From Candidatus Latescibacterota bacterium (lineage in GTDB: Bacteria; Latescibacterota; UBA2968; UBA8231): a stretch of 64,000 nt of DNA. Location of the stretch: positions 6,080,001-6,144,000 of the forward strand of contig CBDETY010000003.1 of the NCBI GenBank assembly GCA_965243025.1, written 5' to 3'. How positions within the stretch are numbered: position 1 is the first letter of the stretch; every line of letters starts with the position of its first letter. The position numbers and the translations under genes were made by a program. The notes under the pieces are model-generated. The model had not been told where the DNA came from, ran no database searches, and was given only the letters and a program-made list of their open reading frames with translations. Shown here one piece after another: positions 17,082-48,978 of this stretch.

Positions 17082-17495
17082 ATGGCCCGTCACCGGGAAA
17101 AACAGAGCTTCATCAGCGAAGAAACGGTGGATCTGACCCCCCTGATCGACTGCGTTTTCCTGTTGCTGGTCTTCTTCATGGTTACCACCGTCTTCATCCA
17201 TGCACGGGGACTCGATGTCGATTTGCCCAGGGCGTCGCAGGCCACCGAGCAGCAGGAGAAGAAGGATATCAACATCATCGTCGAACGGGACGGCCGCATT
17301 GAAATCGGCGGTGAGGAAGTTCTCCCTGGACAGCTGCGGGTCCGGATAGAGCGGGCGATGGTGGAGAACCGGAACGACAACGTGATCATCCAGGGGGACC
17401 GGGATGTCGCCCAGTCCCGGGTGGTGGAGGTGGTGGATGCGGCGAGAGGTGTGGGTGTGAAGGGGATCGCCTTCGCCAAGTTGCAGGGGTCCTGA
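17082..17495 (+). CDS. exbD: Biopolymer transporter ExbD/TolR
   Basis: DLTPLIDCVFLLLVFFMVTT, LDVDLP.A, VIIQGDRD, VVEVVD.AR.VG. Confidence 0.95.
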   Translation: MARHREKQSFISEETVDLTPLIDCVFLLLVFFMVTTVFIHARGLDVDLPRASQATEQQEKKDINIIVERDGRIEIGGEEVLPGQLRVRIERAMVENRNDNVIIQGDRDVAQSRVVEVVDAARGVGVKGIAFAKLQGS

Positions 17496-17497
17496 AC

Positions 17498-17926
17498 ATG
17501 GGACCGGAACGCCGGGAGGGCGGTGTCGAGTCGGGGGAGATGGAGTTGACTCCGCTGATCGACTGTGTATTCCTGCTGCTGATCTTCTTCATGGTGACGA
17601 CGGTGTTCCAGGAGCCGTACAGGCTTAAGGTTTTTCTGCCCGAGGCGGAAGAGGCGGCGATGATCGAGGAGAAGAAGCTGGTGGCGACGATCGATCGCGC
17701 CGGCGCGATGGAGGTGAACCGCCATCCGGTGACGATGGAAAGTGTGGAGGGCGTGTTGGCGCGGGAGAAGGAGGGAGTGAGGGTGGTGACGCTGATCATT
17801 CGCACCGACAAGGAAACCCGGCACGGGCTTGTCCTCGATCTGATGGAAACGGCGAAGCGGATCGGGATCGAGAAGATCGTGCTCGCTACCGAAAAGAAAG
17901 CGGAGGCCCTGCTGGGGACGTCGTGA
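17498..17926 (+). CDS. exbD: Biopolymer transporter ExbD/TolR (second copy)
   Basis: ELTPLIDCVFLLLIFFMVTT, IRTDKET.HG.V..LM..AK.IGI. Confidence 0.95.
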   Translation: MGPERREGGVESGEMELTPLIDCVFLLLIFFMVTTVFQEPYRLKVFLPEAEEAAMIEEKKLVATIDRAGAMEVNRHPVTMESVEGVLAREKEGVRVVTLIIRTDKETRHGLVLDLMETAKRIGIEKIVLATEKKAEALLGTS

Positions 17927-17951
17927 TTCCCCGGGGTATTCAGGGACAGAA

Positions 17952-18506
17952 ATGCTTGGGATTCGAGGTGTGCTTGGGATTCGAGGTGTTTTCGTATTAG
18001 GTTGTTGCGGTATTCAACTCGTTTCCTGTTCCGAGAGGGGGGAAGACGCACAGGACGAAAGTGCAAAGGTTGCAGCCCTCAAGGCGGCGAGGAATCCCGA
18101 AGGTGAGACCTATCTCGATGTCCACTTCGTGCTCGGCAGCAGCGTGGAGGAACTGGTCGCGCGCTTCGGTGAACCCGACGCCTACCGCCCGCAGCTGGGG
18201 AATCAGCCGTACGGGAATATCAAATGGAACGATCTGAAGGGGGTGAAGGTTTTCGCGATCCTCAAGGACAGTCTGTGCGCTTACGTGAACTACGGTTTCC
18301 AAAAGATGGACCCTTTCGACGAGACCAGGGCTTTGAGGATCATCGGAGTTGAGCCTCCTGGGGAGGAGCCGGCGGTCTCGGTACTCGAAACCGGGGTCAA
18401 GAAGTGGTATCCGTTCGAGCAGTACCATCACTTGACGGTCAGTCCCCGGGTGAAGAATGTCACCGTCAAAGGTTTTGATTTTGTGATAGTGCCCGGTACG
18501 TCGTAG
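17952..18506 (+). CDS. Hypothetical lipoprotein
   Basis: Hydrophobic N-terminus with LVSC lipobox-like motif; co-directional with the exbD genes. Confidence 0.65.
   Translation: MLGIRGVLGIRGVFVLGCCGIQLVSCSERGEDAQDESAKVAALKAARNPEGETYLDVHFVLGSSVEELVARFGEPDAYRPQLGNQPYGNIKWNDLKGVKVFAILKDSLCAYVNYGFQKMDPFDETRALRIIGVEPPGEEPAVSVLETGVKKWYPFEQYHHLTVSPRVKNVTVKGFDFVIVPGTS
17953..17988 (+). repeat. Exact 18-bp tandem duplication TGCTTGGGATTCGAGGTG x2
   Basis: Seen directly; encodes LGIRGV twice in the signal peptide. Confidence 0.9.
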
Positions 18507-18670
18507 GGCAATCAGGCGAGTGCGATGTCACTTAAACCGACAGGCTGCCGAAAGGAGCAGAAAGGAGAAGATCCGTTAAGTAAACTGTCAGAAAGCAGCA
18601 AGCGGACTTTGCCGGACTCACGGCTCGGCGAAGGCATTACCATTCATCATGTCGAACCAAGGAGCATGAG

Positions 18671-20668
18671 ATGAGAGTCAAATTGACTTTGATGTCCGTT
18701 GCAATCCTCACCCTTTGTGCGTCCCTGACGTACGCGGGGACCGCCGGCTACGAGTACGTGCGGAGCGAGGATCTGACGATGCTCGGGATTGAAGTGGGTG
18801 ATGTGGAATACGATTTCAGCGGCAACGCGGAGGTTCCCTTTACTCTGTCCGGTACCCAAGCCACGGTCTATCTGGCGATTTACACCAAGGACCAGCCCAC
18901 TCCAGGTGGTTTCGGCGGCCCGGGGAGACCCGAATGGAATGGCGGCCACGCGCTGCTTCGCAGAGAGGGAATCCCCAACATGGTGAAAGTGGTCGAGTGC
19001 GGCCAGTTCGACGTGGGATCGCATACCTGCCTGTGGGATGGCACCGATTGGGCCGGAGAGGACGTCGAGCCGGGCACCTACACCCTCTATGTTCTGGGCT
19101 ACGACAACATCACCGACGCCAACTGGGTTGCCGTCACGGGGTACGGATTCCGGATGCGCAGCTCCGAGGTGAAGGTCATGCAGGGCCAGGGATACATGTA
19201 CATGGTCCCCGCCCGTTTGGGTGGCTGTTGCGCCAACGATCTGGGCGGGCCGAGAAGCCACCTCCTCGGCGGTATGGGTGGCGGCTTCACACTGTATCCG
19301 ATCCCCCCGGGAAATTGGCTGGAAGCCGACGACCCCTTCGACATCCTCTCCGCATACACAACCGAATTGCCGGATTACGGTTTGACCAACGACGAAGGGA
19401 ACCCGATACAGATCCTGAATGGCCAGGCACACGGCGTGGCCATCGATCCTGAAGATTTCTCCAGGAACTGGATGTACGGTTATGCCGGCGTAGGCGTCAT
19501 CGGCGTTACCATAGACTGGGATTCGCAGACCTCCGAGCCCATGGACGGCTTCGGGGAACCGCCGAACAGCTGGCAGACAGGGGAGAATATCGCCCAGGGC
19601 GATGATGGCACTTTCTTCTTCTCCCTGCAGTATCACGAGGGTTTCCTGTACATGGGCAACGGGTGGTTCAACGATCCCCCGTCCGCCGGTATCTACCAGT
19701 TGGATTCCAGCACAGGCGAAGTCACCGACATCATCGACGTCTCCGAGTACATGGTGTGGGAGCAGTACGGTCACGACCCGGAAGTTACCGAAACGACTCT
19801 CGCGGCGAGCATGATCAACTGCATATCGATCGACGAGGAAGGGTTCGTCATGTCCGCTGGCGGTTGGGGTCCAAGTTCGATCCCATGGGTTCCGATCAAA
19901 GTCGACTGGGACGGCGACCTCATTTACCAGAACCACACCGGGGACGGATACAACGACAACATCTGGGCGGGCGAAGCCCAGGCGCTCGGTGTCGAGCCTG
20001 TGACGGATGGTGAGTCTCATTCGGTCTCGATCTCCGGTGGGGAGATCCCGGGGTTCGTCTTCATGACTGAGGGCTCGAAGGGAGACATGTCCCGCCAGCC
20101 GGCCTATGGAGCGGTCTACGGCCCCGATGGCGCCGGCATTTTCCACGCCCAGGGCCCCAATATCCCGCTCAGCAATCACGAGGCGACCGGTACGGGGACG
20201 AATATGGTCCACGAGCAGTCTGACTGGGACGGACTCTATATCCTGACCGCCGAGAAGGGCGTGGGCGAGGAGGAAGGTTGGAACGACGAGTTCGGTGGCT
20301 ATCAGGTCGCCCATTGGCCCTTCCGGATCGAGCAGGCTCTGATCGGCACCGAGGTTACCGTGGTCGAGGAAACCTCCGCTGCAACGCCGGACGCGTTTGA
20401 CCTGGGCGATGCGTATCCCAACCCGTTCAACGCGCAGACGACGATCGAGTTCGCTGTTCCCTCCGACGGCCATGCGAAGTTGACCATACTCAACAGCCAG
20501 GGCCAGATAGTGTCCACGCCGGTTAACCAGTTCCTGTCGGCGGGGTCCTATCGCACCAGTTGGAACGGGAACGACGACGGCGGAAAGGCCGTTGGCGGCG
20601 GCATCTATTTCTACCGTCTGAAGGTCGGGGACTACGAGCAGGCCAAGAAGATGACCTTGCTCAAGTAA
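18671..20668 (+). CDS. Secreted acidic protein with N-terminal FlgD-Ig domain, probable beta-propeller core and C-terminal FlgD/T9SS type A-like sorting domain
   Basis: AAGGAG RBS, signal peptide, WDGTDWAGEDVEPGTY, YPNPFNAQTTIEF...GIYFYRL...KKMTLLK. Confidence 0.85.
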   Translation: MRVKLTLMSVAILTLCASLTYAGTAGYEYVRSEDLTMLGIEVGDVEYDFSGNAEVPFTLSGTQATVYLAIYTKDQPTPGGFGGPGRPEWNGGHALLRREGIPNMVKVVECGQFDVGSHTCLWDGTDWAGEDVEPGTYTLYVLGYDNITDANWVAVTGYGFRMRSSEVKVMQGQGYMYMVPARLGGCCANDLGGPRSHLLGGMGGGFTLYPIPPGNWLEADDPFDILSAYTTELPDYGLTNDEGNPIQILNGQAHGVAIDPEDFSRNWMYGYAGVGVIGVTIDWDSQTSEPMDGFGEPPNSWQTGENIAQGDDGTFFFSLQYHEGFLYMGNGWFNDPPSAGIYQLDSSTGEVTDIIDVSEYMVWEQYGHDPEVTETTLAASMINCISIDEEGFVMSAGGWGPSSIPWVPIKVDWDGDLIYQNHTGDGYNDNIWAGEAQALGVEPVTDGESHSVSISGGEIPGFVFMTEGSKGDMSRQPAYGAVYGPDGAGIFHAQGPNIPLSNHEATGTGTNMVHEQSDWDGLYILTAEKGVGEEEGWNDEFGGYQVAHWPFRIEQALIGTEVTVVEETSAATPDAFDLGDAYPNPFNAQTTIEFAVPSDGHAKLTILNSQGQIVSTPVNQFLSAGSYRTSWNGNDDGGKAVGGGIYFYRLKVGDYEQAKKMTLLK

Positions 20669-20690
20669 AGAGGTCGCCGATCGTGTAACC

Positions 20691-20731
20691 GAGGTGGAGG
20701 AGGGCAATGTCCTTCCTCCACCTCTTGTTTT
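20691..20731 (+). terminator. Intrinsic terminator after the 18671 gene
   Basis: GAGGTGGAGGAGGG/CCTTCCTCCACCTC stem followed by TTGTTTT. Confidence 0.85.
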
Positions 20732-20770
20732 CTAAGGTGATTTTTCTTGCGTGATTTCGAGGCGGTCCGA

Positions 20771-22840
20771 ATGATGAAGCGCAGCCACGAACAGCTCAGG
20801 AGCCTGAGTCTGTCGGTTTTCCTGCTCACCTTACCGGCGCCTGTCGCGTCGGAGATGGAGTGCGGTTCGGGGATATGCCGGCAGGCCTCCTGGAACAGTA
20901 CGACGTGGTACTACAGCGAGTTCGAAGCCGATGCAGCGGGGGATGGGGAGATTCGGCTCACCGCGGTGGATGGGTACGAGCTGTGGCTGAATGGTACGAG
21001 TATCGGGTTCGGTGACGACTGGACGACGATGGAGACTTACGAGGTATCGGTCGACCGGGGCACCAATGAAATCCTGGTGCGGGTGACCAGTGAGGGGATG
21101 GGGAACGGGAGCGGACTGCTGGTGGAGCTGGAGACCGGTGCGCAGCGCACCGGAACGAAGGTGGGGAATCGGGAGGAGCGGGAGGGTGCATGGCGATGGT
21201 CCAGCGAGGATCCGGACCTGGCGGAGGTGGACTGGAGCAAGGCCCCGCTGGTTCAGTCCGGCACCCTGGATCTGACCCGGATAGCGGGGCGTACGAATCT
21301 ATCGGTCGTGTCTGTGGCGGGATATCCCGGAGACGTGGACATCGGGACCTCGGAAGGGGGGATTGCGCTGAGCTCGATAGAAGGCCGGAATCTGGCCCTG
21401 GGGCAGCCCTCCAGCGTCCTGGAAGCCAACGACGGGGTGCTGACCAGTTCGTGGACGCCCGGTGCGAATGCCCTGAACAAGCATGTGAGCATGGACCTGC
21501 GGGAGGTCCGCAGGGTGAGCGGGGTCCGGGTGATCACCAAGGCGCCTTCGGGCAGGTCGGGCAGCTATTTCATCAATTCCCTGAAGGGGTATTCGGTGCA
21601 GGTGAGCGAGGACCAGTTCCGCTGGTCTGAGGTCGCGGTGCTGCACGGGATCACCGAGTACGAGGAGACGACGGTTCGTTTTGAGCCCGCCCTGGCGCGA
21701 TACATACGGATTGTTGTCGCCGAGATTGACGGGGTCAGTTCCCCGGATGTGGCCGAGATCGAGGTGTACGGTGAGGCCTACAGTGCCGCCGGGACGTTCG
21801 AATCCGAGCCCCTCGATCTCGATGAACAGGGCGGGAAGAACATCGGCAGGATCACCTGGGAGGCGGACGTACCGGTCGGCACGTCGGTCGCTTTCCAATT
21901 CAGGACGATGGTGGACGGCGCCTGGAGTGCGTGGACGAGGGAATACGCGTACGAGGACAGCAATACCTTCGTCGAGTCGCCCGAGCCCGCGAGCCAGTTC
22001 CAGTACCGGGTACTTCTGTCGACGGGGGTGGAGGTCGTCACGCCCCGGTTTCGGAGTATCACGGTGGAATCCTCTGCGGAGGACGTACCCGCAGAATCAG
22101 CTTTGGGGCGGGTTTCGCCGTCGACCGTGGAGATGGGGAGGGACACGACATTTACATACGCTCTCGATTTGGAGATCTCAGGGCAGAACAGCGGTGTCGA
22201 GCGGCTGATCATCGCGGTTCCGGGGCCGGTGACCCTCGACCCGGATGCGCCCGTCGACGGCCTGGAAGGCACTGGCAGTCAGGTGGTGGGCGCCGGAATG
22301 ACCGACAGGGGGTTGGAGATTCCTTTCGATCCTCCTCTGGACGAGGATGTGCAGTTGTCGATCCCCATGAGAGGCGCGATATACACGATAGCTCACTCCT
22401 GGAGCGCGCAGCTGCTCGCGCTGGATTCGGGGAATCCGCAGAACGTGGTCGAAGATACACAGGGAGGAGGATGGTCGGTTTCCGCCCCTCAAGTGCTGGG
22501 TCAAGTGCTGGTAGAGGCGCGGGCACAGCCCGCCGTTTTCACGCCGAACGGGGATGGCAGGAACGACCACGCTACCATCGTTTTCACGCTGGCCAAGGCG
22601 GAGGAGGCGCCGGTATCGATTCGGGTTTTCTCTCTGGGTGGATCGCTCGTTCGGGAGCTGCACGCGGGGTCACTGTCGGCGCGGCGGTATGACGGCAGTT
22701 CGCAGTCTCCTCCGGGGCGCTGGGATGGAACAGATGCCAGCGGAAATGTCGTGCCTCCGGGGATTTATCTGTATGAGTTGCTGGTGGAAGCGGATGAAGG
22801 GGATGAGCGACGCGTCGGCACCGTAGGCCTCGTGTACTGA
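20771..22840 (+). CDS. Secreted protein with discoidin (F5/8 type C)-like domain and C-terminal CHU_C/T9SS type B-like FlgD domain
   Basis: Signal peptide after ATGATG; MDLREVRRVSGVR..YSVQVSED..W..ARYIRI..VAEIEVYG; FTPNGDGRND...WDGTDASGNVVPPGIY. Confidence 0.8.
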   Translation: MMKRSHEQLRSLSLSVFLLTLPAPVASEMECGSGICRQASWNSTTWYYSEFEADAAGDGEIRLTAVDGYELWLNGTSIGFGDDWTTMETYEVSVDRGTNEILVRVTSEGMGNGSGLLVELETGAQRTGTKVGNREEREGAWRWSSEDPDLAEVDWSKAPLVQSGTLDLTRIAGRTNLSVVSVAGYPGDVDIGTSEGGIALSSIEGRNLALGQPSSVLEANDGVLTSSWTPGANALNKHVSMDLREVRRVSGVRVITKAPSGRSGSYFINSLKGYSVQVSEDQFRWSEVAVLHGITEYEETTVRFEPALARYIRIVVAEIDGVSSPDVAEIEVYGEAYSAAGTFESEPLDLDEQGGKNIGRITWEADVPVGTSVAFQFRTMVDGAWSAWTREYAYEDSNTFVESPEPASQFQYRVLLSTGVEVVTPRFRSITVESSAEDVPAESALGRVSPSTVEMGRDTTFTYALDLEISGQNSGVERLIIAVPGPVTLDPDAPVDGLEGTGSQVVGAGMTDRGLEIPFDPPLDEDVQLSIPMRGAIYTIAHSWSAQLLALDSGNPQNVVEDTQGGGWSVSAPQVLGQVLVEARAQPAVFTPNGDGRNDHATIVFTLAKAEEAPVSIRVFSLGGSLVRELHAGSLSARRYDGSSQSPPGRWDGTDASGNVVPPGIYLYELLVEADEGDERRVGTVGLVY

Positions 22841-23099
22841 GCCTCTTCCGGCCGTGGGGGCCGGCCGCGCTTTGCACGTAATCTCGAGGGATGGATCAAG
22901 TGCCAGCCTGGCTTAATTCCCGTTCCGCACGAGCGCCGATCCATCCCGCTCGCCACGTCCGCTCCCTCCCCGGGTGCCCCAACCCGGCTCGGTCGCGGCC
23001 TTTCACCAGGGAGGCAGCAGGGACCGCGAATTCCTCGAGGGCGGTGTGGCTCTTCCCTCCTCGAACAATTCCCGTCGACCTCTGACCAGGGGAGCAGCC

Positions 23100-25832
23100 G
23101 TGCATCTTCCAAGGCTCTCGATCACCGTGCCATGGGTCGTCTTCGTCCTCGCCTCCGGGGCTTCGGGGCAGTTCATCTCCAGGGACTACTACCCCCTGTG
23201 GGGAGAGGCGTACGAGAACTACGGATCGATCGGGTATCGGGATGCGCTGCAGCCGATCCTGGGAACGGGAGGCGGCGGGACCAGGGACACCGCTCCAGTC
23301 GATGGCTTTACGCTGGAGTTGGAGCGTCGACAGTACGATCCGTTCGGCAATTACCTGGCCGATGGCCTTGACGTGTTTCGCCTGCAGGAGTTCCGCGGCA
23401 TCGCGCCGAGCCGGGGGAGTCTTCTGTTCGAGAGCGACCTGTCCAACAGCATTTTCCAGAACCTGATGATCGCCAGCGATGACTTTCGCGGCTGGTCCAA
23501 CCGCGTTCTCATCGGGCATGCGATACGCACGAAGTTCACCTCGCTGACGTTCAGCCGGGCGCGGTTCAGCGGGATTCGGTGGGACGGGGCCACCCGGCGC
23601 AACCGCTTCACCGTTCTCGGGTCCAGGATCTCCAACCCCACCCCGCGGTCCGAGGAAACGGGTGCGGATCGGCATTCGGCCTATCTGTTCGGGGGTCGGT
23701 GGGAAAACACCGTCGGAGATCTCCTGACGATGGGGCTTTCTTACGTGACCACCTTCCGCAGCGATGCTACCCGGCGCAAGGGAGGGCGTATTCAGCGCGG
23801 GGTGGTTCCCGTTGATCTGGGTGGGGGAGGTCCGGTAGAGGATCTCTATGTGATCTTCAGTGACGACAGTCCGGAGGATGGGTCTGGCGCACAAGTCCAC
23901 GCGTTGGAGGTGTACATCGACGGGGTGCGCGCGAACCTCCAACCCGAGGTGGTGTTGATACCGCAAATCCATACCTATACCAAGGCGAGTCCCCTCGTCA
24001 TAGAAAAATTGCCGCTTCGGACTCAAGTACTGTCCTACGTGCGTGCCGACGGGCCATGGCTGTCTGAAGCGCTCAGCCACAACACTGACATAGGTCCTCT
24101 TTCGCGTCTTGAAGCGATTCTGAGACAGAGGGGGGCCGACGACAGGACGAAGAATCCACGCCACGGCCCTCCTCCACATCCTGTCGCGCTGATCGAGGGA
24201 CAGCCCCTGGAGACCAGCGGCACCGATGTAATACTGTTCAAATACCGGATACCCCCGAAGGCGCGATCGGTCCAGTTCCGGGCTCTGGTTGCAAACGACT
24301 ACTCGATCGATGTGGCTACGCGCGTGGGGTACTGGGCGGACTGGCACAATGTCCGGCGTGCGGCGGGCAACGTGCGCGACCGTTCCAATCTGGGCTGGGT
24401 ATCCTTCGATTACGGGTTCCCCACGGGCCTCGCGACGTATGGGACAGACGCTGAACTCGATATTCTCGGCGCAAAGATTCGTGGGGAGATCGTCAACAAC
24501 CTCGGGTATTATACCTATCCCGGCATCTCCGGGGCGTGGCACAAGCAGAGCACGCGAGCCTACTTCGTCAACGCATCACGCCGTTTCTCACGGGTCCATG
24601 CAGGTGCTGAACTGTTCGATCTTCCTTCGACCTACAGGACCTCGTTGGAGGCTGTGGATCCGGGATCGCCCAACGCGGTCGCGAAGCTCTACCATCTGGT
24701 CGAGGACAACGATGACCGGGATGAATGGCCCGACGATGACGAATGGCCGAACAGCCCGGATCCGCGCGACGGGGACGGGATTTTCCCCGGGCTGGACGAG
24801 GATGGCGACGGGATTATCGATACCAACGTCAACGACAACCAGGTGCCGGACTACCAGGAGCCGTTCCTGATGTACTATGTGGATCCGGATGGATACACGT
24901 ACGGCGACGACTTCGACAACAACGGGACAGTGGATGTCCGGCAGGACGACAACCGCCCCGACTACCCGTACGATCTGGATCGGCGCGGACGGCATCTGTT
25001 CGCCCGGCTCGACCTGACTCCCACACTGAAGAATACGGTCGGCTGGTACCGCCTCAGGAGCGTCACCGGCGGGGGGCGCAACAAGGCGCTGTACTCGAAG
25101 CTGCACTATGGGGTCGGACGCGGGGGGGTGGGCAGGATCGATGTGTATTACAGGATCAAACGGGTGAACGACGACATACCGGCGGACATCCGGGGCGGGT
25201 ACCTTCAGTTTGCGGGATTCGACGCGGTGGGCGCGATCCAGCCGGATACGCTGCCCATGCGCAACAGCCTGGTCAACCTGTTGTTCGTGGAGACGAGGTT
25301 TACGGGTATCCCGCATCTGAATGTGTCGTCCAAGCTGCGCTATGAAGTCAATGACCGTCGGCGCACGGAGTTCGACGACGGCTCGGTTCAGGAGAAGAGC
25401 CGGGATCGTTGGCGAGCGCTGGTAGCGCGGGCTGACTACAAGTGGAAGCTCGGGCAGCTGACGGTCATGCCGATGTTCAAGTTCCTGACCGAGCACAGAG
25501 AGGTACCGTCTTCGGGACGGCACCCACTCCTGCACACCCGCCATGTGATTCCCATCTTCCGGATGGATTACGCAGTGACCTCGGGCAATGTATTGCGAGC
25601 GGGGATCCAGGGCTTTGGGATGCTGAAGGAACGATACCGGAATGTCGCCTGGCCATTTGTCGCGTATGATGCGACGAGTCAGGTGTTTCTGTTTCAGAAT
25701 CGCGGGAATTACTCCGGATACGACGTGCGGCTCAACCTCGGGTTCCGCCGCCAGAGCGTAGATACCCGGAGCGCTCTCAGTCGCAGGTCCGCGTCCTCGA
25801 AGGAAGTGTTCCTGCAGCTGTACTTCGAATAG
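23100..25832 (+). CDS. Putative outer-membrane beta-barrel protein with Asp-rich Ca-binding insert, paralog 1
   Basis: GTG 23100 with GGGGAG RBS and signal peptide (ASG|Q); alternating amphipathic strands; C-terminus VFLQLYFE; FPGLDEDGDG..EPFL.Y.VDPD motif. Confidence 0.75.
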   Translation: MHLPRLSITVPWVVFVLASGASGQFISRDYYPLWGEAYENYGSIGYRDALQPILGTGGGGTRDTAPVDGFTLELERRQYDPFGNYLADGLDVFRLQEFRGIAPSRGSLLFESDLSNSIFQNLMIASDDFRGWSNRVLIGHAIRTKFTSLTFSRARFSGIRWDGATRRNRFTVLGSRISNPTPRSEETGADRHSAYLFGGRWENTVGDLLTMGLSYVTTFRSDATRRKGGRIQRGVVPVDLGGGGPVEDLYVIFSDDSPEDGSGAQVHALEVYIDGVRANLQPEVVLIPQIHTYTKASPLVIEKLPLRTQVLSYVRADGPWLSEALSHNTDIGPLSRLEAILRQRGADDRTKNPRHGPPPHPVALIEGQPLETSGTDVILFKYRIPPKARSVQFRALVANDYSIDVATRVGYWADWHNVRRAAGNVRDRSNLGWVSFDYGFPTGLATYGTDAELDILGAKIRGEIVNNLGYYTYPGISGAWHKQSTRAYFVNASRRFSRVHAGAELFDLPSTYRTSLEAVDPGSPNAVAKLYHLVEDNDDRDEWPDDDEWPNSPDPRDGDGIFPGLDEDGDGIIDTNVNDNQVPDYQEPFLMYYVDPDGYTYGDDFDNNGTVDVRQDDNRPDYPYDLDRRGRHLFARLDLTPTLKNTVGWYRLRSVTGGGRNKALYSKLHYGVGRGGVGRIDVYYRIKRVNDDIPADIRGGYLQFAGFDAVGAIQPDTLPMRNSLVNLLFVETRFTGIPHLNVSSKLRYEVNDRRRTEFDDGSVQEKSRDRWRALVARADYKWKLGQLTVMPMFKFLTEHREVPSSGRHPLLHTRHVIPIFRMDYAVTSGNVLRAGIQGFGMLKERYRNVAWPFVAYDATSQVFLFQNRGNYSGYDVRLNLGFRRQSVDTRSALSRRSASSKEVFLQLYFE

Positions 25833-25844
25833 TGGGTATGCGCC

Positions 25845-28784: not shown

Positions 28785-28805
28785 TCCTGGTGATGACGGT
28801 TCAGG

Positions 28806-31850: not shown

Positions 31851-31901
31851 CCGAGGGAAATGGTTGCGAGCATTCATGACGACGGCGGGGAGCGCGCAGG
31901 C

Positions 31902-33179: not shown

Positions 33180-33261
33180 GGGGCCCGCTCGTTCATGTTC
33201 GGGATCCGCAGCCGGTGACGGGGCGCGGGCCCATGCGGCCTGCAATGGACAGGAGTCTGTG

Positions 33262-36504: not shown

Positions 36505-36516
36505 AAAGGAGAGCTC

Positions 36517-37068
36517 GTGAAACACCTGATCTGCGTTCTGTTGTGTGTGGGGTTTGTCTGTGGGTCGGCGCGGGAGTCCGGAGGCGAGGAAGAGATGTTT
36601 GCCGAAGAGATCCGCGTGTCGCGGAATACGGCGGTGATTCTGTCCGTGCTCTTTCCCGGTCTGGGACAGATGGCCTCGGGGCAGAAGCGGAAGGGCGGGG
36701 CGCTCTTTCTCGGCGAGCTGGTCTCGTTGATCGTGGCGGTGGACGGGCACGAGTCCTACAACACACGCCGGGGTGTATACGAGACCTCCCGGAGCGAGTA
36801 CGAAGCCCTGCGTGTGGGGGGGAGCCACGAGGAGGCGGAGGCCAAGTGGCGGCGTCTGGTGGATCTGAACGATGACCTGGACAACCTGCACGGCCGCCGG
36901 CAGATCTTCGGGTATGCGGCGGCCGGGATCTACGCCTTGAACCTGGTGGATATCCTGTTCTTGCAATCGGGAGATGCGACGGCTGCGCAAGAAGTCGACC
37001 GCCGGCCGCGGGTGTCGTTGGGTCCCGTAGGCGGGGCCACGGGAATCGTGATATCGAAGAGGTTCTGA
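36517..37068 (+). CDS. DUF5683-like exported/membrane protein
   Basis: AAAGGAG RBS, signal peptide, LSVLFPGLGQ...KG, YALNLVD, C-terminal Phe. Confidence 0.7.
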   Translation: MKHLICVLLCVGFVCGSARESGGEEEMFAEEIRVSRNTAVILSVLFPGLGQMASGQKRKGGALFLGELVSLIVAVDGHESYNTRRGVYETSRSEYEALRVGGSHEEAEAKWRRLVDLNDDLDNLHGRRQIFGYAAAGIYALNLVDILFLQSGDATAAQEVDRRPRVSLGPVGGATGIVISKRF

Positions 37069-37091
37069 CCAGCGGAGGATGGAGGAGGATC

Positions 37092-37538
37092 GTGTTACGG
37101 AATAAAGAGATGGCGACGGCGGGTTCTTCGCCTCGAAGGATCGGTCACTTGAACGTATGGCACCTCCTTTTGTTCGGTATGCTGTCGGCAGGTCTGGCCT
37201 TCTGCAGCAAACAGCACAAAGCCCCGGTTGCCTTCCACGAAACGCTGCTGGGTTCGCCCAGCGACCTGCGGGCGCTGGTCGAAGAGGGGAATCGGGTCGT
37301 CCTGACGTGGAGGATGGCGGACGACACGAACGTGGCGGGGTTTGTCGTCTCGTTGTCCGATACCCTGGGACTTCGGAGGGAGGCCCTCGTGACGGAGACG
37401 GCCTACGGCATCGAAGAGTCCAGTTTGACCGATGAAGGGTTTGCCGATTCGACCTGGTTTTTCTTCCTGGTCAGCGCGGTGGACGACTCCCTGTTCCGGG
37501 GGGCCCCTTCCCGCCTCGATACGGTGTTTGTGTTCTAG
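37092..37538 (+). CDS. Lipoprotein with fibronectin type III-like domain
   Basis: GGAGGAGG RBS, LAFC lipobox, PSDLRA...VVLTW...GFVV...FLVSAVD. Confidence 0.7.
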   Translation: MLRNKEMATAGSSPRRIGHLNVWHLLLFGMLSAGLAFCSKQHKAPVAFHETLLGSPSDLRALVEEGNRVVLTWRMADDTNVAGFVVSLSDTLGLRREALVTETAYGIEESSLTDEGFADSTWFFFLVSAVDDSLFRGAPSRLDTVFVF

Positions 37539-37561
37539 CAGGAGCACCCGGGGAAAGAGCG

Positions 37562-38755
37562 ATGGCCCAGCACGGACGATTCGAAACACCTGCCGATGCC
37601 CTGAAGTTGGGCAGGCTGCTCGCCGACACCCGCCGGCTTGCTGTCGCCGGCCTCGTCATCGCCCTGTTGGCACACGCGGCTCTGTTCTCCTACCTGGTGA
37701 TCACCAGGTCGGAGATCCGGGAAGCTCAACCGCCCACGCTCGAGTTCGTGATGCGGACGCCCAGGCTTACCAAACCCTTCGAGTTGAAGAAGAAGCGGGT
37801 GCAGCGAAAGATGACGCGCAGGCAAGTCCAGGCAGAGATCGTTCCCGAGGTCGCCATCAGCGAGCGCATAAACCGTCCGGACGTATTCGGAACCGTGGCC
37901 ACCTTCAATTATGCGATCGAGAGCGGGGCGACCGTGGGCGGGCAGGCCGTCGTGCCGGAGATCGCGGCTTTCGCGCGACTGGCCAGCACCAAGGAGCCCG
38001 AAAAGCGGCTGAGCATGCAGGAGGAGTTTCTCGATCTGGACGCGTTGGACACAGGGAAGTACAAAGGGCTCGTGATCCAGGATCCGACCAACAAGCAGGA
38101 CATCCAGGGGTTCGTGTACCTGGCACTGGCGGTTGGAGAAGAGCTCGATCCGCCAACGCCCCGGGCGATTCCGCAACTGGCGAGGGCGGTCAACAAGTAT
38201 ACCATGATCAACGCCAAAGTAGAGGATCGTCTGAAGCTGGATTCGCGGGATCTGTTCAAGGCGCCCTTCGTGTATATCACCGCGAACAAGGCATTCAATC
38301 TCACCGCCCAGGAGGTCCGCAACGTGCGGGAATACCTGCGGATGGGTGGGTTCGTGTTCGCGGAGAACGGGGTCCCGTCCCTGGAATACGGACCGGCTGA
38401 AGCCTCGTTGCGGAAGATGTTCAAGGATGTGCTCAAGAAGGATGCGCGGTTCATAATGCTCTCGTACGACCACCCCATCCATCACAGCTTTTTTGACTTC
38501 AACGATGGACCGCCACCCGGTGGAGAGATCTTGAGCGCAACAGGAGGCAGTAAGGTTCCGTCGCCGCATCTGGAGGGGATCTTCCTGGAAGGACGCCTGG
38601 TGGCGGTCTATTCGGACAAGGCGTACGGGGCCATCTGGGAGAGAGAGTTTTCGAATGAACCGCAGTTGAAGATGGGGTTGAACCTGGTGGTATTCGCCCT
38701 GACGCAACAGGGCTCGATCGCGCAGCAGCAGATCGATTTCTACAGCCAGAAATAG
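37562..38755 (+). CDS. Membrane-anchored DUF4159 domain protein
   Basis: TonB-like TM with His (ALLAHAAL), basic linker, PFVYIT...LREYL..GGFVFAE, DHPIHHSFFDF, LEGI..EGRLV, GLNLVVFALT. Confidence 0.8.
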   Translation: MAQHGRFETPADALKLGRLLADTRRLAVAGLVIALLAHAALFSYLVITRSEIREAQPPTLEFVMRTPRLTKPFELKKKRVQRKMTRRQVQAEIVPEVAISERINRPDVFGTVATFNYAIESGATVGGQAVVPEIAAFARLASTKEPEKRLSMQEEFLDLDALDTGKYKGLVIQDPTNKQDIQGFVYLALAVGEELDPPTPRAIPQLARAVNKYTMINAKVEDRLKLDSRDLFKAPFVYITANKAFNLTAQEVRNVREYLRMGGFVFAENGVPSLEYGPAEASLRKMFKDVLKKDARFIMLSYDHPIHHSFFDFNDGPPPGGEILSATGGSKVPSPHLEGIFLEGRLVAVYSDKAYGAIWEREFSNEPQLKMGLNLVVFALTQQGSIAQQQIDFYSQK

Positions 38756-38764
38756 CGTGGAAAG

Positions 38765-40534
38765 ATGACGGCACCATCGAACGGTCAAGGTCCACCGATC
38801 ACCCTCCCGGACGGGACCGCGTTCCAGCTCTGGCGGGATGAGACCGTCTACGGACAGGTCTACTACGTGGATCAGCGTCACCCGGGGGCAGCCGATGACA
38901 ATGCGGGCACCGAGGAGGCGCCTTTTCTCACGATTCAGCGCGCCGCTGAACTCGTCGAGCCGGGCGGGAAGGTTCTGATAAAGTCGGGAGTCTACCGCGA
39001 GCTCGTTCAGCCCCGGCGCGGCGGCACCGGTGCGGATTCGATGATCAGCTACGAGGCGGCGCCGGGGGCCGAGGTCGTCATTCGCGGTTCCCGGGTTATC
39101 GACGCCGCGTGGACACATACGGGTGCCGCCCGGTCACTGAGTGTGTGGACGGCGGAGCTGCCCGAAGCCTTCTTCGAAGGGGATCATCCCTTCGCCGTCG
39201 TCAACACCACCGAGGCGGACTTCGAGCTCATGCACTGGGCCCGAGCCGAGCGCGGAAGGGCCCCGCACACGCTGCCCCGGACCATGGTTTTCCAGGACGG
39301 CCGCCGCCTGACCCAGCTGGAGACGCGCGCCGACCTGCCCCGGGTTCCGGGCACATTCTCAATCGACCCCGGGAGCAGGACGCTGCTCGTACATCCCTTC
39401 GATCGCAGCAATCCCAACACCTGCGAAATCGAGGCCACGACCCGGCAGTTCCTGTTCAATCCGCGGGTGAGGGGGCTGGGGTACATCCGCATCAAAGGGT
39501 TGACCTTCGAGCACGCCGGCAACGGTTTCATCCGCTCGGGGAACGGCGCCGTGACGACCTGGGGCGGGCACCACTGGATCATCGAGGAGAACACCGTTCG
39601 TCACATCAATTCCGTGGGCATCGAGATCGGCGGTTTCACCGACGAGACCCTGGAGGATGAAAACCGCAACGAACTGGAAGAGACGACGGGCGGGCATCTG
39701 GTACTCCGCAACCACGTCTGCGACTGCGGCACCGGCGGCATTCAGGGAACCGTCGTCCCGCGGAGCCTGGTGGCCGACAACCACATCCACGACTGCGGCT
39801 GGCAGGAAGTCGAGCGCTACTGGGAGACCGCCGGCATCAAGATCCTCATCCTCAGCGATACCGTCGTGCAGTGCAACCACATCCACCACTGTCGCGCAGC
39901 CCCCGGAATCTGGATCGATTTCGCCAACAGGAATTCACGGGTGACGCGAAACCTGCTGCACGACATCGCGGCGACAACCGGGGGGATCTTCTTCGAGGCA
40001 TCGAATGCCCCGAACACGATCGACCACAATGTCATCTGCAACGTGGAAGCGGGCAGCGGCGTGTATCAGCAGGATTGCGACCGGCTCCTGATCGCCCACA
40101 ACCTGGTGATGAACTGCGACTATGCCGGGGTCCATATGCGGAAGTGTCCGACCCGCGACCGGGTCGGTGTGTGCAAAGACAACCGCATCGTCAACAACGT
40201 CATCGTGGGATGTTCGAAGGGATTCGAATACGTGGTCATGGACAACTTCTCGGACCACAACGTACTCGCCGGCATGGACGGGGACTTCCGTCTGGACGAC
40301 TGGCAGGCTACCGGTCTGGATGCCCACAGCCGCGTGGTAGAGCTCGACATGGTGATCGACACCGAGGAGCAACACCTGGCTTGGTCGTCACCGTGCGATG
40401 CGGTCCCCAAGGTGATCCGTGACGAGCTGTTGAGTCTCGACTACTTCGGTCGTCCGTATCCCGGGGAAGAGGTCCCGGTAGGGCCTTTCACCGAAGGTTG
40501 GGGCCCCGTGGGGCGCCGACTGCGACTTCGGTAG
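38765..40534 (+). CDS. Right-handed parallel beta-helix protein (DUF1565 N-terminus; pectin-lyase fold)
   Basis: YYVD...A.D.N.GT..APF.TIQRAA..V.PG....I..GVYRE; repeated N.IH.C...GI; no signal peptide. Confidence 0.85.
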   Translation: MTAPSNGQGPPITLPDGTAFQLWRDETVYGQVYYVDQRHPGAADDNAGTEEAPFLTIQRAAELVEPGGKVLIKSGVYRELVQPRRGGTGADSMISYEAAPGAEVVIRGSRVIDAAWTHTGAARSLSVWTAELPEAFFEGDHPFAVVNTTEADFELMHWARAERGRAPHTLPRTMVFQDGRRLTQLETRADLPRVPGTFSIDPGSRTLLVHPFDRSNPNTCEIEATTRQFLFNPRVRGLGYIRIKGLTFEHAGNGFIRSGNGAVTTWGGHHWIIEENTVRHINSVGIEIGGFTDETLEDENRNELEETTGGHLVLRNHVCDCGTGGIQGTVVPRSLVADNHIHDCGWQEVERYWETAGIKILILSDTVVQCNHIHHCRAAPGIWIDFANRNSRVTRNLLHDIAATTGGIFFEASNAPNTIDHNVICNVEAGSGVYQQDCDRLLIAHNLVMNCDYAGVHMRKCPTRDRVGVCKDNRIVNNVIVGCSKGFEYVVMDNFSDHNVLAGMDGDFRLDDWQATGLDAHSRVVELDMVIDTEEQHLAWSSPCDAVPKVIRDELLSLDYFGRPYPGEEVPVGPFTEGWGPVGRRLRLR

Positions 40535-40613
40535 TTCCCGATCATGGCTCTCCACGCTGCGCCGATACGGGGAATGCGGCGGCGAGAGCTGATTGCTGCA
40601 GGAGTTGGAACTG

Positions 40614-41849
40614 ATGCCAAATAGCCGTGTCCTGCGTTCCGGTATGCTGATGGCCCCGGTTTTCCTGGCCGCGTGCCTGTCGGTGCCGCGGGTCGAGTAC
40701 CGCTCCGCCCTCGACCCGAAGGAGTCGGAGCGGGAGGAATACTCGATAGGGGATGACGGAGTAGTCTCCTACCACCTGGAAGGCTCCCGGCTGGATGTGC
40801 AGTACATGACCGACCCGGCGCTGAACGAGATGTTTCCCGACGATTCGAAAGGGGGAGAGCTTTCGACCAATCCCTACACCTACGGGGACTGGATGGATCC
40901 GAACGTTGGCTACGTGCCGAATCGATTCACCGTGTTCAACATCGCGGTGTACAACTACACCTACGCCAAAATGCAGCTGGATCCGCTGAAGGTCATCCTG
41001 TTGACGGACCGGGGAGGCTATCTGGAATCGTACACGATCGCCCCGGTGGCCGATCGCAAAAGCCTGGAGGGGTACTACCGGGGCCTGCGCGGCATCAGCG
41101 GGAACGAGCACTATCGCTTTTCGAAACGGATAGGGATCGTGCGCGCCACCGCCTATGGAGAAGACGAGGTGATTTTCAAAGGGGAGGGGTACAGCGGGCT
41201 TGTGGTGTTCGATCCCCTCCATCCCAAGGTGCGCAACGCGCGTCTGATTCTCAAGGAATTCGCCCTCAAGTTCGACGCCTCGGGGCACCCGATCGAGACC
41301 ATGGACATTCCCTTTGATTTCAGCCGTACGGTCAGCAGGGAAGTGATCGCCGAGGAAGAGTTGGCAGAGCGAAGGCCCACCGAGACGACGCGGGTGGTAA
41401 TTCGGGGCCCCCGCCAGATCCGCGGCAACCAGCAGGGAGACCTGGCCCGGAACACGGGCGCGATCAACTCGATCGTCGACCGCAACCTCGCGGACCTGCG
41501 GCGGTGTTTTGCCGGGGCGTTTGACCGGGGAGAGGCCGTCGAGGGCGCGGTGGAGGTTCAGTTCACGATTCGCGTGAACGGCGTGGTCGAGGCGGTGAGC
41601 GTGACCAGTTCCACGGTCATGAACGCGCAGGTGGGCGCCTGTATTGCGGCCGAAGTGCAGCGCTGGCAGTTCCAACCCGCCGGGCAGTACGCACAGCAGG
41701 ACAGGCCGTCCCAACAGAGCGCCGCGCGGGTGGGCGAGCCAGGATCGGGAGCTGAATCCCGCCGGGAGGAACCCTCGAGACCTCAGCGACGCCCCCCGGT
41801 GACCGATGTGGTGGTGGTGTATCCGTTCACTTTCGAGGAAATCGAGTAG
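40614..41849 (+). CDS. Lipoprotein with C-terminal TonB-C/AgmX-PglI-like domain
   Basis: FLAAC lipobox; LRRCF......EGAVEVQFTIRVNGVV.V.VTSST....VGACI...V.RWQF...VVYPFTF. Confidence 0.8.
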   Translation: MPNSRVLRSGMLMAPVFLAACLSVPRVEYRSALDPKESEREEYSIGDDGVVSYHLEGSRLDVQYMTDPALNEMFPDDSKGGELSTNPYTYGDWMDPNVGYVPNRFTVFNIAVYNYTYAKMQLDPLKVILLTDRGGYLESYTIAPVADRKSLEGYYRGLRGISGNEHYRFSKRIGIVRATAYGEDEVIFKGEGYSGLVVFDPLHPKVRNARLILKEFALKFDASGHPIETMDIPFDFSRTVSREVIAEEELAERRPTETTRVVIRGPRQIRGNQQGDLARNTGAINSIVDRNLADLRRCFAGAFDRGEAVEGAVEVQFTIRVNGVVEAVSVTSSTVMNAQVGACIAAEVQRWQFQPAGQYAQQDRPSQQSAARVGEPGSGAESRREEPSRPQRRPPVTDVVVVYPFTFEEIE

Positions 41850-41983
41850 CACTCTTCGCGCCTTTCCGCTGGTGCTCATCTCCATCTCTCCATCCCTTCG
41901 CTGCCGTTTCATTCCTGTCGACAGCTGGAATTGAGTAGGTCGTCGAGGTTCCCCGGCGACACTCGAGGGAGGGACTACCCGGT

Positions 41984-43951
41984 TTGTCAGGAGGTGTAGA
42001 AGACCGGCCGGCGTCCGGGGTTTCGCTGCGCGCCCTCGTCATCGGCGCCGCTCTCAGCCTGGCGATCGGCGTGGGAGAGCCCTTCGGTGCCTTCGTCATC
42101 ATGGGCACCCGCATGAGCGGGTTGAACGGTCCCGCCGCGTTCTTCCTGTTCTTCCTGTGGGTGGGTGTGGTCCAGGTCGTGTTGGGGCTCATTCACAGAA
42201 GGCTGGCCCTGGACAAGGGAGAGCTGCTGACCATCTACATCATGATGGTCGTCGCCACGGCGTTCTCGGGTGGCGAGCGCAACGGGTTCTGCCTGATGCT
42301 GTTGGGGTCGACTGCCGGGGTATCCTACCTGGCCAGTCCGGAAAACAACTGGGCGGAACGGGTCCATCCCTACGTGGCCAAGTGGATGGTTCCGCAGGAC
42401 GAGATGGGGATCCGGTGGTTTTTCGAGGGCATGCCGGAGGGCGAGTCGATCCCCTGGGGCATGTGGCTGCCGCCGCTGTTGTGGTGGTTGCTGTTCATGA
42501 CGGCGCTGTGGACGGCGAGCATCTGCGCGATGGTCATCCTTCGCCGCCAGTGGGTGGAACACGAACATCTCATCTATCCCATCACCAAGGTGCCGCTGGC
42601 CATGGTGCAACCGCCGCCGGGCGGTTCGCTGGTGGCGCCTTTCTTCAAGAGCGGCCTGATGTGGGCGGGTCTGTCGCTGTCGTTCGGCCGCGAGAGCCTC
42701 AACGCCCTGAATCACTACTTCCCCATCGTTCCCGTGGTTCCGACCCACTTCGGGCAACTCACGCTGATACCGCGATTCGCCAATGTAGGCTTTTCGCTGA
42801 ACCTGATGATCCTGGGGTTCGCCTATTTCCTCAAGGCGGACGTCATGCTCGGGATGTGGGTTTTCTACGTTCTGCGCCGCCTCGAGGAGGGTGTCCTGCA
42901 CCTGACGGGAGCCGGCATCGGGGAAGCGCTTTCCAACTACGGCGGCGGCGGTGGTGTCAGGGGGATCCTCGCGCACCAGAGCATAGGGGCGATGATCGCG
43001 CTGGTCCTCTTCGGACTGTGGATTTCCCGGGGACATCTGCGGAAGGTGTTCCGCAAGGCCTTCAGAGGGGACGACTCGGTGGACGATGCCGACGAAATCA
43101 TGCCCTACCGCACCGCCGTATGGGGGGTGATCCTCGGGGTGATCGGAATGAGCCTGTGGCTGTGGCGGGCGGGTCTGCCCCTGTGGGCGGGTCTGCTGTT
43201 TCTGTTCGGGGCGCTTGTGACCTTCGTCAGCCTGACGCGCATCATCGCCGAGGCGGGACTGCCGATGGTGTTTCCCCGCAACATCCCCCTGGACTTCGTG
43301 GTCTCCGGAATCGGGGTGCGCTACACGGGGCCGGCGGGGATGGCGGCCCTGGGTCCGACGGTGATATGGACGGAGTCCCTGGCGAGCACGATGATGGCCC
43401 ACACCGCCACCGGGTTGAAGCTGACCGGCGAGATCGCCCATCGCAGGCGCTGGCTGCTGCTGGCGCTGGCGATCGCCATTCTGGTCTCCGTAGTCAGCAC
43501 CTTCTGGATGTCGCTGTCGATCGCATACCGCGAGGGGGGCGTCAACGTAGCGCGTTCCGTCGGTTACCTCCCCGACTTCACCTGGGCGTACGTGGCGAGC
43601 CGGGTCGAGGAGAACGCGGGACCGAACGGGCTGGGTTGGCTCATCCGGTTGGCCGGGGGAGGGGTTATGACCGGTCTGCTTCTCATGCAGCGCCGGTTCC
43701 TGTGGTGGCCGTTGCACCCGCTGGGATTCGTGGTCAGCATGGACCGGGTGATGGACACGGCCTGGTTCCCCGTCTTCCTGGCCTGGACGCTCAAGACGGT
43801 CCTCTTGAAGTACGGCGGCCTCAAAGCGTACCAGGCGCTCATCCCCGTTTTCTACGGGTTGATACTGGGTCAGTTCGTCGCCGGGGGATTCTGGTTGATC
43901 GTCGACTTTTTCACCGGGATGAGGGGTAACGGACTGAGCATGATGTACTGA
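41984..43951 (+). CDS. DUF6785/DUF6784-type polytopic membrane protein (putative transporter), copy 1
   Basis: TTG start with GGAGGGA RBS; ELLTIYIMM, ILRRQWVEHEHLIYPI, WWPLHPLGF, LKYGG, GLILG. Confidence 0.85.
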   Translation: MSGGVEDRPASGVSLRALVIGAALSLAIGVGEPFGAFVIMGTRMSGLNGPAAFFLFFLWVGVVQVVLGLIHRRLALDKGELLTIYIMMVVATAFSGGERNGFCLMLLGSTAGVSYLASPENNWAERVHPYVAKWMVPQDEMGIRWFFEGMPEGESIPWGMWLPPLLWWLLFMTALWTASICAMVILRRQWVEHEHLIYPITKVPLAMVQPPPGGSLVAPFFKSGLMWAGLSLSFGRESLNALNHYFPIVPVVPTHFGQLTLIPRFANVGFSLNLMILGFAYFLKADVMLGMWVFYVLRRLEEGVLHLTGAGIGEALSNYGGGGGVRGILAHQSIGAMIALVLFGLWISRGHLRKVFRKAFRGDDSVDDADEIMPYRTAVWGVILGVIGMSLWLWRAGLPLWAGLLFLFGALVTFVSLTRIIAEAGLPMVFPRNIPLDFVVSGIGVRYTGPAGMAALGPTVIWTESLASTMMAHTATGLKLTGEIAHRRRWLLLALAIAILVSVVSTFWMSLSIAYREGGVNVARSVGYLPDFTWAYVASRVEENAGPNGLGWLIRLAGGGVMTGLLLMQRRFLWWPLHPLGFVVSMDRVMDTAWFPVFLAWTLKTVLLKYGGLKAYQALIPVFYGLILGQFVAGGFWLIVDFFTGMRGNGLSMMY

Positions 43952-46788: not shown

Positions 46789-48978
<2,190 letters not shown>

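Follow-up and report, generated by a model that had tools for sequence, protein, structure and literature searches.

The locus described here raises the question of what kind of envelope machine is encoded where two subunits of a proton-motive-force stator stand in one run of genes with three very large outer-membrane proteins, two secreted proteins with sorting tails and a long predicted periplasmic scaffold. The window, meaning the whole stretch of 64,000 nucleotides that was analysed, covers positions 6,080,001-6,144,000 of contig C3 in the genome (6.8 Mb, 96% complete) of a sponge-associated bacterium of the Candidatus Latescibacterota. Bacteria of the Latescibacterota type are widespread, uncultured degraders. 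The 16 consecutive genes of the run lie on the + strand between 17082 and 43951, with intergenic gaps of 2 to 164 bases; this layout was proposed in an initial annotation made from the letters alone and is given alike by the open reading frame (ORF) list and a GC3-based gene call. As read from its sequence, the cluster is a conserved, undescribed envelope system, built of known kinds of parts around a new family of barrels, and the recurrence of its gene order in many genomes places it well outside what chance would give.

Window proteins were assigned to families with Pfam (E up to 0.01) and with NCBIfam at its curated cut-offs. The synteny set consisted of 76 loci returned by a scan of species-representative genomes, in which the cluster proteins were then located by tblastn, and all synteny counts given below are lower bounds, since the flanks reached no further than 10 kb or the end of the contig.

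Outer-membrane barrels and their conservation

The centre of the cluster is occupied by three tandem genes for predicted giant outer-membrane barrels, namely OMa (22974-25832, + strand; 952 aa, true start perhaps later), OMb (25845-28784, + strand; 979 aa) and OMc (28806-31850, + strand; 1014 aa), which fall into position-1, position-2 and position-3 orthogroups, respectively, and of which OMc was modelled with AlphaFold. OMa and OMb are each 31% identical to OMc, and the three gave 0 Pfam and 0 NCBIfam matches, the PorP/SprF family (PF11751) and the SLH domain of Pfam included. With OMc as query, 137 relatives were found, which where named are called ‘hypothetical protein’ and for which the labels shown are Latescibacterota or Gemmatimonadota; a few of them carry a weak SlpA_C match (PF21620, at most 31.7 bits, cut-off 35). 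A search of 1.84 billion proteins with a profile of the barrel family gave 1048 representatives at E up to 0.001.

The OMc model, built from a 99-row alignment (pLDDT 79.9, pTM 0.81), is nearly all beta. Foldseek with this model returned solely outer-membrane barrels (MtrB, SlpA, OmpG and OccK), all at low TM, and a full-library structural aligner gave SlpA (Z 14.2, 274 residues aligned), FimD (Z 13.3), porins (about Z 13), PelBC (Z 11.9), a polysaccharide secretin (Z 11.4) and TonB-dependent transporters (TBDTs; Z 9-11). The initial annotation, which had described three paralogous outer-membrane-type proteins of about 950 aa and had recognised no plug-type receptor among them, had left room for their being ordinary TonB-dependent receptors or not barrels at all; OMc is instead modelled as a barrel, and in the full-library alignment TBDT folds rank under SlpA, usher and porins. 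The DSSP string of the model suggests a large beta-barrel of about 24 long strands, in which turns of 2-5 residues all fall on one side, taken as periplasmic, and the extracellular-loop side would bear a 228-residue insert (about 261-488) and a 125-residue segment rich in Asp (about 588-712). No other stretch of the barrel family is as conserved as this Asp-rich segment. The first ~100 residues of OMc are disordered in the model yet hold a conserved aromatic motif; Y82 and N84 are nearly invariant.

Three tandem barrels were found in 25/76 related loci. The secreted protein CTD2 accompanies them in 18 of these 25, the TPR scaffold in 17, the secreted protein CTD1 and the DUF4159 protein in 16 each, the TonB-C lipoprotein in 12, the DUF5683 protein in 11, a small lipoprotein of the 37092-37538 type in 10, ExbB in 8 and ExbD in 7. 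The gene neighbourhood is thus conserved and not a matter of scattered homologs. In a tree of 84 barrels, positions 1, 2 and 3 form separate clades (12, 14 and 24 rows), each with a support of 100, and the three barrels are therefore regarded as old, distinct subunits. The barrel family was present in 94/151 sampled genomes of the phylum, including 63/63 of the organism's own family and 13/13 of another, and in 0/30 and 0/19 sampled genomes of two sister families of the same class. On sequence evidence the cluster is a lineage-specific envelope system, conserved in bacteria labelled Latescibacterota and Gemmatimonadota. The lineage-specific trans-envelope machine of the initial annotation accordingly stands in its parts, its synteny and its barrel fold, and is not supported in three properties considered below: a core of uronic-acid polysaccharide utilization locus (PUL) type, a histidine anchor and an ExbB of its own.

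Stator and periplasmic components

The run opens with ExbD/TolR-type stator subunit 1 (17082-17495, + strand; PF02472, 97.9 bits) and a subunit 2 of distinct type (17498-17926, + strand; PF02472, 94.7 bits), Pfam confirming that two exbD genes are present. They are 38% identical to each other, and the closest paralogs of subunits 1 and 2 (45% identical in each case) are the first and the second ExbD, respectively, of a sibling ExbB-ExbD-ExbD locus. ExbB stands directly upstream of the ExbD pair in three loci from other genera of the family (L115-L117), and it adjoins ExbD-ExbD in all related ExbD-bearing loci (10/10). A separate canonical ExbB-ExbD-ExbD-TonB set is located at 5.02 Mb of the genome and 27 TBDT barrel matches also lie outside the cluster, so that the motor of the cluster is considered an additional system. 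An orphan ExbB-like gene (264 aa) was observed 70 kb upstream (L026), beside a 71%-identical paralog of the beta-helix protein and a truncated DUF6785 gene.

The stator genes are followed by a small putative lipoprotein (17952-18506, + strand) that has no Pfam or NCBIfam family, one paralog in the genome and the same position in 2/2 same-genus genomes. Downstream of the barrels, the TPR scaffold (33262-36504, + strand; 1080 aa, with an N-terminal membrane anchor or signal) matches TPR_6 (189 bits) and the YbgF model TIGR02795 (227 bits, cut-off 90), its start at 33262 being the probable one, set from ortholog alignments. Then come a small DUF5683 membrane protein (36517-37068, + strand; PF18935, 31.4 bits), a small putative lipoprotein (37092-37538, + strand) with a visible lipobox and no family match in Pfam or NCBIfam, for which the earlier ‘Fn3’ label is withdrawn, and a single-pass inner-membrane protein with a periplasmic DUF4159 domain (37562-38755, + strand; PF13709, 110.3 bits; PDB 4i66, E 5.7e-11). 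The last of these parts is a lipoprotein (40593-41849, + strand) that joins an N-domain specific to the lineage to a TonB-C-like domain of AgmX/PglI type (NF033768, 65.6 bits, cut-off 40), for which Pfam TonB_C gave 19.7 bits, under its cut-off of 24.6. Its lipobox Cys is invariant in 12/12 sequences, and an Atlas search with the N-domain returned only unnamed clusters labelled Latescibacterota, at a score of 0.86. The names first given to the ~1080-aa TPR, DUF5683-like and TonB-C-like proteins agree with Pfam and NCBIfam, in the last case through NF033768. A complex prediction of TPR residues 25-420 with the TonB-C part of the lipoprotein (275-418) and OMc 55-128, run without controls, scored 0.00. 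In the literature, searches by name found DUF4159 only in a paper on Pfam itself and DUF5683 only in unrelated papers.

Secreted proteins with sorting tails

CTD1 (18671-20668, + strand) is a secreted protein with a type IX secretion system (T9SS) sorting domain of type A, matching TIGR04183 at 33.2 bits (cut-off 23) and FlgD_ig at 53.1 bits. CTD2 (20747-22840, + strand) is a secreted, lectin-like F5/8 type C protein (PF00754, 41.4 bits) with a type-B-like T9SS tail that scores 28.7 bits with CHU_C (PF13585; cut-off 27) and 17.8 bits with TIGR04131, under the cut-off of 35. The sorting-like tails suspected in two secreted proteins are thereby above a cut-off in both. T9SS genes lie elsewhere in the genome, namely SprA (SprA_N, 107.8 bits), two PorU (621 and 615 bits, cut-off 420) and a PorV-like protein at 95.6 bits, under its cut-off of 250; both a C-terminal sorting domain and T9SS core genes in the genome, by which T9SS cargo is recognised, were thus found. 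SprA_N was present in 143/151 sampled genomes of the phylum, including 29/30 and 19/19 of the two sister families devoid of barrels, and T9SS presence was therefore rejected as a discriminator for the barrel system.

Paralogous modules in the genome

Parts of the cluster are repeated throughout the genome, in which tblastn found 41 barrel, 81 CTD2-like, 49 DUF6785, 15 DUF4159, 9 lipoprotein-like and 5 TPR stretches. A second full cluster is located at C3:84,740-103,888, and a sister locus at C3:6.17-6.19 Mb holds DUF4159, CBM9, barrels, a CTD2-like gene, TPR and ExbB-ExbD-ExbD. A further sister locus, L024 (C3:3500000-3511000), has CBM9, a paralog of the lipoprotein N-domain, TPR, ExbB, ExbD and DUF4159, and in place of a giant barrel a PorP/SprF-like protein scoring 22.3 bits, exactly at the cut-off. 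The association of barrels with CTD2-like genes is strong, 39/41 barrels lying within 10 kb of one (random mean 6.1; 0/2000 shuffles reach 39). Thirty peripheral barrels form a clade of their own with two sub-clades, and where they stand as adjacent pairs the first gene belongs to one sub-clade and the second to the other (7/7 pairs). The peripheral modules are flanked by SurA-like peptidyl-prolyl isomerases (PPIases), FG-GAP/ASPIC proteins, PhyH, sulfatase and DUF6785.

Two transposase genes (DDE_3, with identical Pfam matches and scores) at L103:8021-9109 (- strand) and L103:12785-13873 (+ strand) flank a CTD2-like gene; the pair sits inside a peripheral barrel module, and IS1595-type and Y2-type transposases occur near other modules. 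Mobile elements may help to shuffle the barrel modules.

For SusD (PF07980) there were 0 matches in the 96%-complete genome, a Bacteroides control being positive, and the barrels of the cluster gave no Plug or TBDT match in Pfam, so that the absence of a SusC/SusD pair reported initially is retained. The genome-wide best scores for TolB (144.9 bits, cut-off 343) and Pal (79.8 bits, cut-off 125) are under their cut-offs, and the Ogl-like propeller of the cluster scores 31.1 bits with the TolB model.

Comparison with known systems

The Agl-Glt core complex consists, in the available part of one report, of aglRQS with gltD, E, G and C, and its role outside myxobacteria is described there as unknown (PMC3169522); the 2025 structural model, as given in the accessible portion of its source, comprises a porin trio GltABH, a GltD pillar, the TonB-C domains of GltG/J and an AglR5QS motor (PMC11761067). 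Both systems have one TolQ/ExbB-like and two different TolR/ExbD-like stator proteins, ExbB being absent at this locus itself, and the stator composition that characterises Agl-Glt/Nfs is found in the two distinct ExbD here together with ExbB-ExbD-ExbD in the ten ExbD-bearing relatives and the sister locus. A TPR protein of ~1100 aa bearing a signal or anchor (GltD has ~1190 aa), a TonB-C-like domain of the AgmX/PglI type and a trio of outer-membrane barrels carrying surface-exposed proteins are likewise common to both. They differ in that the barrels here have ~900-1000 aa and belong to an unmodelled family, whereas those of Agl-Glt have ~200-270 aa; that the surface proteins are T9SS cargo here and lipoproteins in Agl-Glt; that the TonB-C protein here is a lipoprotein without FHA or transmembrane parts; and that a DUF4159 single-pass protein and DUF5683 are extra here and a cytoplasmic platform is missing. 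The TonB-C lipoprotein scores under the cut-offs of the Glt equivalogs (GltG, 44.7 bits against a cut-off of 650; GltJ, 17.3 against 450). The Agl-Glt-like idea of the initial annotation thus gains support for the parts list, in which Agl-Glt is the nearest parallel in architecture, the likeness being one of size, number and order of parts.

TonB systems with SusC/SusD also pair a proton-motive-force stator with outer-membrane barrels and a barrel gene with a gene for a surface binding protein, and in both systems these two genes are expanded to dozens of modules per genome. The barrels here, however, are without a Plug or TBDT domain, SusD is missing, the lid candidate is T9SS-exported, and canonical TonB with the TBDT matches is separate. 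Type B cargo of the T9SS is anchored on PorP-like barrels according to the available part of PMC9143113; with type B cargo and PorP/SprF the cluster shares a gene with a CHU_C-type tail directly beside a barrel gene, as well as SprA, PorU and a PorV-like protein in the genome, but its barrels are of another family and about three times longer, and Exb-type stator parts and a TPR scaffold are added. TolR-like stator proteins, YbgF-like TPR units and a lipoprotein partner are common to the cluster and to Tol-Pal with CpoB/YbgF, and differences are that no equivalent of TolB, Pal or TolA scores above its curated cut-off and that three giant barrels and T9SS cargo are foreign to Tol-Pal. The best structural matches of OMc are Deinococcus SlpA (30 strands), the FimD/PapC ushers (24 strands, equal to the ~24 read from the model) and MtrB (26 strands); identity is 6-10%, and SLH, coiled-coil and usher N- and C-domains are missing, so the match is at the level of fold. 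A literature search, with supplements outside its scope, found nothing on a Latescibacterota T9SS, the barrel family or this motor-linked system.

Proposed function and alternative explanations

The purpose that we tentatively favour, while placing it at rather less than an even chance, is the capture of glycan or glycopeptide material at the surface and its import by a motor-linked route; it is favoured because barrel-plus-lectin modules are multiplied in the manner of SusC/SusD, SusD is missing, and permeases and catabolic genes are neighbours. Under this proposal the T9SS encoded elsewhere would export CTD1 and CTD2, which would stay docked on the barrels as type B cargo does on PorP-like barrels, and OMa, OMb and OMc would assemble into one outer-membrane complex. 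The anchored TPR protein would bridge the periplasm, an ExbB/ExbD/ExbD' stator would pass proton-motive energy into this bridge, with ExbB in this genus borrowed from a sister locus, and either the DUF4159 single-pass protein or the TonB-C lipoprotein could be the coupler. Lectin-like surface proteins would capture glycan or glycopeptide, which would then cross the barrels in an energised step; further downstream, DUF6785 permeases of OPT-like type and cytoplasmic enzymes would join as optional extras, and the additional barrel and CTD2 modules would act as substrate-specific receivers in the role that SusC/SusD have in Bacteroidota. An extended form of the proposal, which appears doubtful, is a third class of energised outer-membrane importer, with hetero-oligomers of ~24-strand barrels that lack a classical plug, T9SS-delivered lectin-like lids, an Agl/Tol-like ExbB-ExbD-ExbD' stator acting through a TPR pillar, and one three-barrel core serving dozens of substrate-specific two-barrel modules.

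Several observations weigh against capture and import by an energised complex. The window is without ExbB, 0 of the genome's 7 MotA/ExbB matches falling inside, and the 1.5 kb upstream of the ExbD pair is without ExbB in 2/2 same-genus genomes (L113 and L114), which leaves the motor proposed for the cluster with its two ExbD genes and no ExbB of its own at the locus. No plug was identified in the three barrels, which match neither Plug (PF07715) nor the 22-strand TBDT barrel (PF00593) in Pfam, nor was a TonB box, the conserved N-terminal motif of OMc having been assigned no partner. In the DUF4159 protein, for which a TonB-like anchor with a histidine had been described, the domain and the His are both present, but the His occurs in 9/21 aligned orthologs and paralogs and was rejected as a conserved feature; in some relatives the lipoprotein is shorter and lacks the TonB-C domain. 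Recognisable carbohydrate-active enzymes are few around the peripheral modules, and the Ogl-like propeller, the beta-helix protein and DUF6785 each occur in 1/25 triple-barrel loci, which removes the uronic-acid PUL reading as a core property. DUF6785 copies are within 10 kb of a barrel in 9/49 cases (random mean 4.3; 54/2000 shuffles reach 9), and with this weak genome-wide link and the single triple-barrel locus DUF6785 was ruled out as a core part. Near-universal barrels in the families holding them, 63/63 in the organism's own, would fit a housekeeping role equally well.

The same parts could instead belong to a surface-anchoring or transport apparatus of the Agl-Glt or SprB/SprF kind, in which the motor moves or tensions T9SS adhesins or lectins for adhesion, gliding or coat remodelling and nothing is imported; this is somewhat unlikely. 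The three barrels, the TPR protein as GltD, the TonB-C of GltG/GltJ and AglR5QS do correspond, so far as the available parts of PMC3169522 and PMC11761067 describe Agl-Glt, the lipoprotein C-domain passes the AgmX/PglI model, and CTD2 passes the type-B model CHU_C, with nearly all barrels near CTD2-like genes in an adjacency like that of type B cargo and PorP in the available part of PMC9143113. At sister locus L024, moreover, the PorP/SprF-like protein replaces the giant barrels beside TPR-ExbB-ExbD-DUF4159. Yet Pfam and NCBIfam reveal no platform genes of AglZ, MglA or GltI type in the cluster, the barrels are about four times the size of GltA/B/H and are not PorP/SprF members, the GltG and GltJ scores are far under their cut-offs, and dozens of modules near permeases and catabolic genes suit nutrient capture better. 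A different role for an energised stator would be envelope integrity, with SlpA/OmpM-like barrels tethered through TPR and lipoprotein in replacement of Tol-Pal and with CTD1 and CTD2 as a surface layer. The best OMc fold match being the SlpA barrel, the weak SlpA_C matches in relatives, ExbD proteins that score best with TolR models, a TPR protein that passes the YbgF/CpoB model, the lack of TolB or Pal above cut-off in the genome, and barrels in every sampled genome of two families all agree with it, as does the strong hairpin after CTD1. Strong hairpins are often found after highly expressed structural genes. We nevertheless judge such a role improbable: no SLH, OmpA-like or other peptidoglycan-binding domain was found in the barrels or the lipoprotein with Pfam and NCBIfam, the YbgF score reflects the many TPR repeats of this 1080-aa protein and is no proof of orthology, the barrels are missing from the sampled genomes of two sister families of the same class, and 30 peripheral barrels with 81 CTD2-like genes, diverse in their lectin-like heads, are more than tethering by itself readily accounts for.

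Least probable is a gate for export of exopolysaccharide or another polymer, with TPR and barrel as in PelB/PelC, BcsC and AlgK/AlgE. A TPR gene beside barrel genes and the PelBC and polysaccharide secretin fold matches would accord with it, but those two Z scores are within the general crowd of barrel matches, and the conserved core has no glycosyltransferase, polymerase, flippase or co-polymerase gene. The PelB/PelC, BcsC and AlgK/AlgE exporters, moreover, are not known to have three distinct barrels, T9SS cargo or an Exb-type stator, which also counts against this explanation.

If capture and import through a motor-linked three-barrel complex is correct, the picture of nutrient entry in Latescibacterota would change, since the Latescibacteria genome study, in its available part, takes non-specific porins to be the route of nutrients across the outer membrane (PMC4454575). 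It would also link T9SS cargo anchoring, Ton/Tol-type motors and Agl-Glt architecture, which are usually studied apart, and would offer a first functional handle on the barrel family, on DUF4159 and DUF5683, and on DUF6785 as an OPT-like permease.

Accessory genes

Three genes of the run are regarded as accessory, and for each the label first assigned was confirmed by Pfam. They encode an Ogl-like propeller without a signal peptide (31860-33179, + strand; PF14583, 41 bits), a right-handed beta-helix protein without a signal peptide (38765-40534, + strand; PF13229, 62.8 bits), whose 71%-identical paralog adjoins another DUF6785 gene, and a DUF6785 plus DUF6784 inner-membrane permease of predicted OPT/YSL fold (41984-43951, + strand; 382 and 102 bits). 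The DUF6785 model (pLDDT 90, pTM 0.91) matched barley Yellow Stripe 1 (YS1) in Foldseek (E 1.4e-7, TM 0.64/0.69) and in the full-library aligner (Z 24.3, root-mean-square deviation 3.7 A over 537 residues), where the next match was at Z 6.3. Because the fold of the whole protein matches barley YS1, DUF6785 is very probably an OPT/YSL-type secondary transporter, and this looks like the first functional assignment for DUF6785/DUF6784. The likeness to OPT/YSL transporters concerns the DUF6785 gene alone, at a sequence identity with YS1 of 11%; Pfam OPT (PF03169) gave no match to the protein at E up to 0.01, a DUF6785 profile had 0 matches among PDB sequences, and the OPT clusters returned by an Atlas feature search scored 0.77-0.79, below the trust level of 0.9, and serve as a lead only. 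No papers were found under the name ‘DUF6785’ in the literature search. In the window, in L031 and in L115 the motor or cluster is immediately followed by a DUF6785 gene, and a second copy in the window (52794-54761, - strand) belongs to a run of - strand genes that also includes an enolase-superfamily member and a GFO/IDH/MocA oxidoreductase.

Transcription and neighbouring features

A terminator-like hairpin (20691-20724, + strand; 14 pairs, 9 of them G-C, then a T-rich tail) lies just past the CTD1 stop codon and separates CTD1 from CTD2, so that one transcript for the whole cluster is not assured. It may act as an attenuator that keeps the level of CTD1 above that of the downstream genes. 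Promoter and terminator scans of the window gave site counts not above those of shuffled sequence.

Upstream of the cluster and divergent from it are a 1659-aa ORF with an M28 peptidase domain and a C-terminal FtsX-like permease domain (12045-17024, - strand) and a UPF0182 gene assigned by Pfam (9150-11984, - strand), both as annotated initially. A 2622-aa open frame opposite these two genes (9078-16946, + strand) has no Pfam match and was discarded as a shadow ORF in high-G+C DNA. A leucine-rich-repeat protein with Recep_L_domain and LRR_5 matches (45046-46704, + strand) is encoded a short way downstream of the cluster. Eukaryote-like repeats of this kind are often noted in sponge symbionts. 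FG-GAP/ASPIC (UnbV) proteins are encoded at 46789-48978 and 55918-58032 of the window and also at loci L105, L106 and L108; such genes recur near barrel modules and DUF6785 genes, often with SurA-like double-PPIase genes. Tandem large membrane proteins with a spermine/spermidine-synthase-like domain, one of them with C-terminal TPRs, are encoded at 58278-60875 and 60928-63699 (+ strand), and the same kind of domain is fused to an MFS-like part at L107:9886-12456 (- strand).

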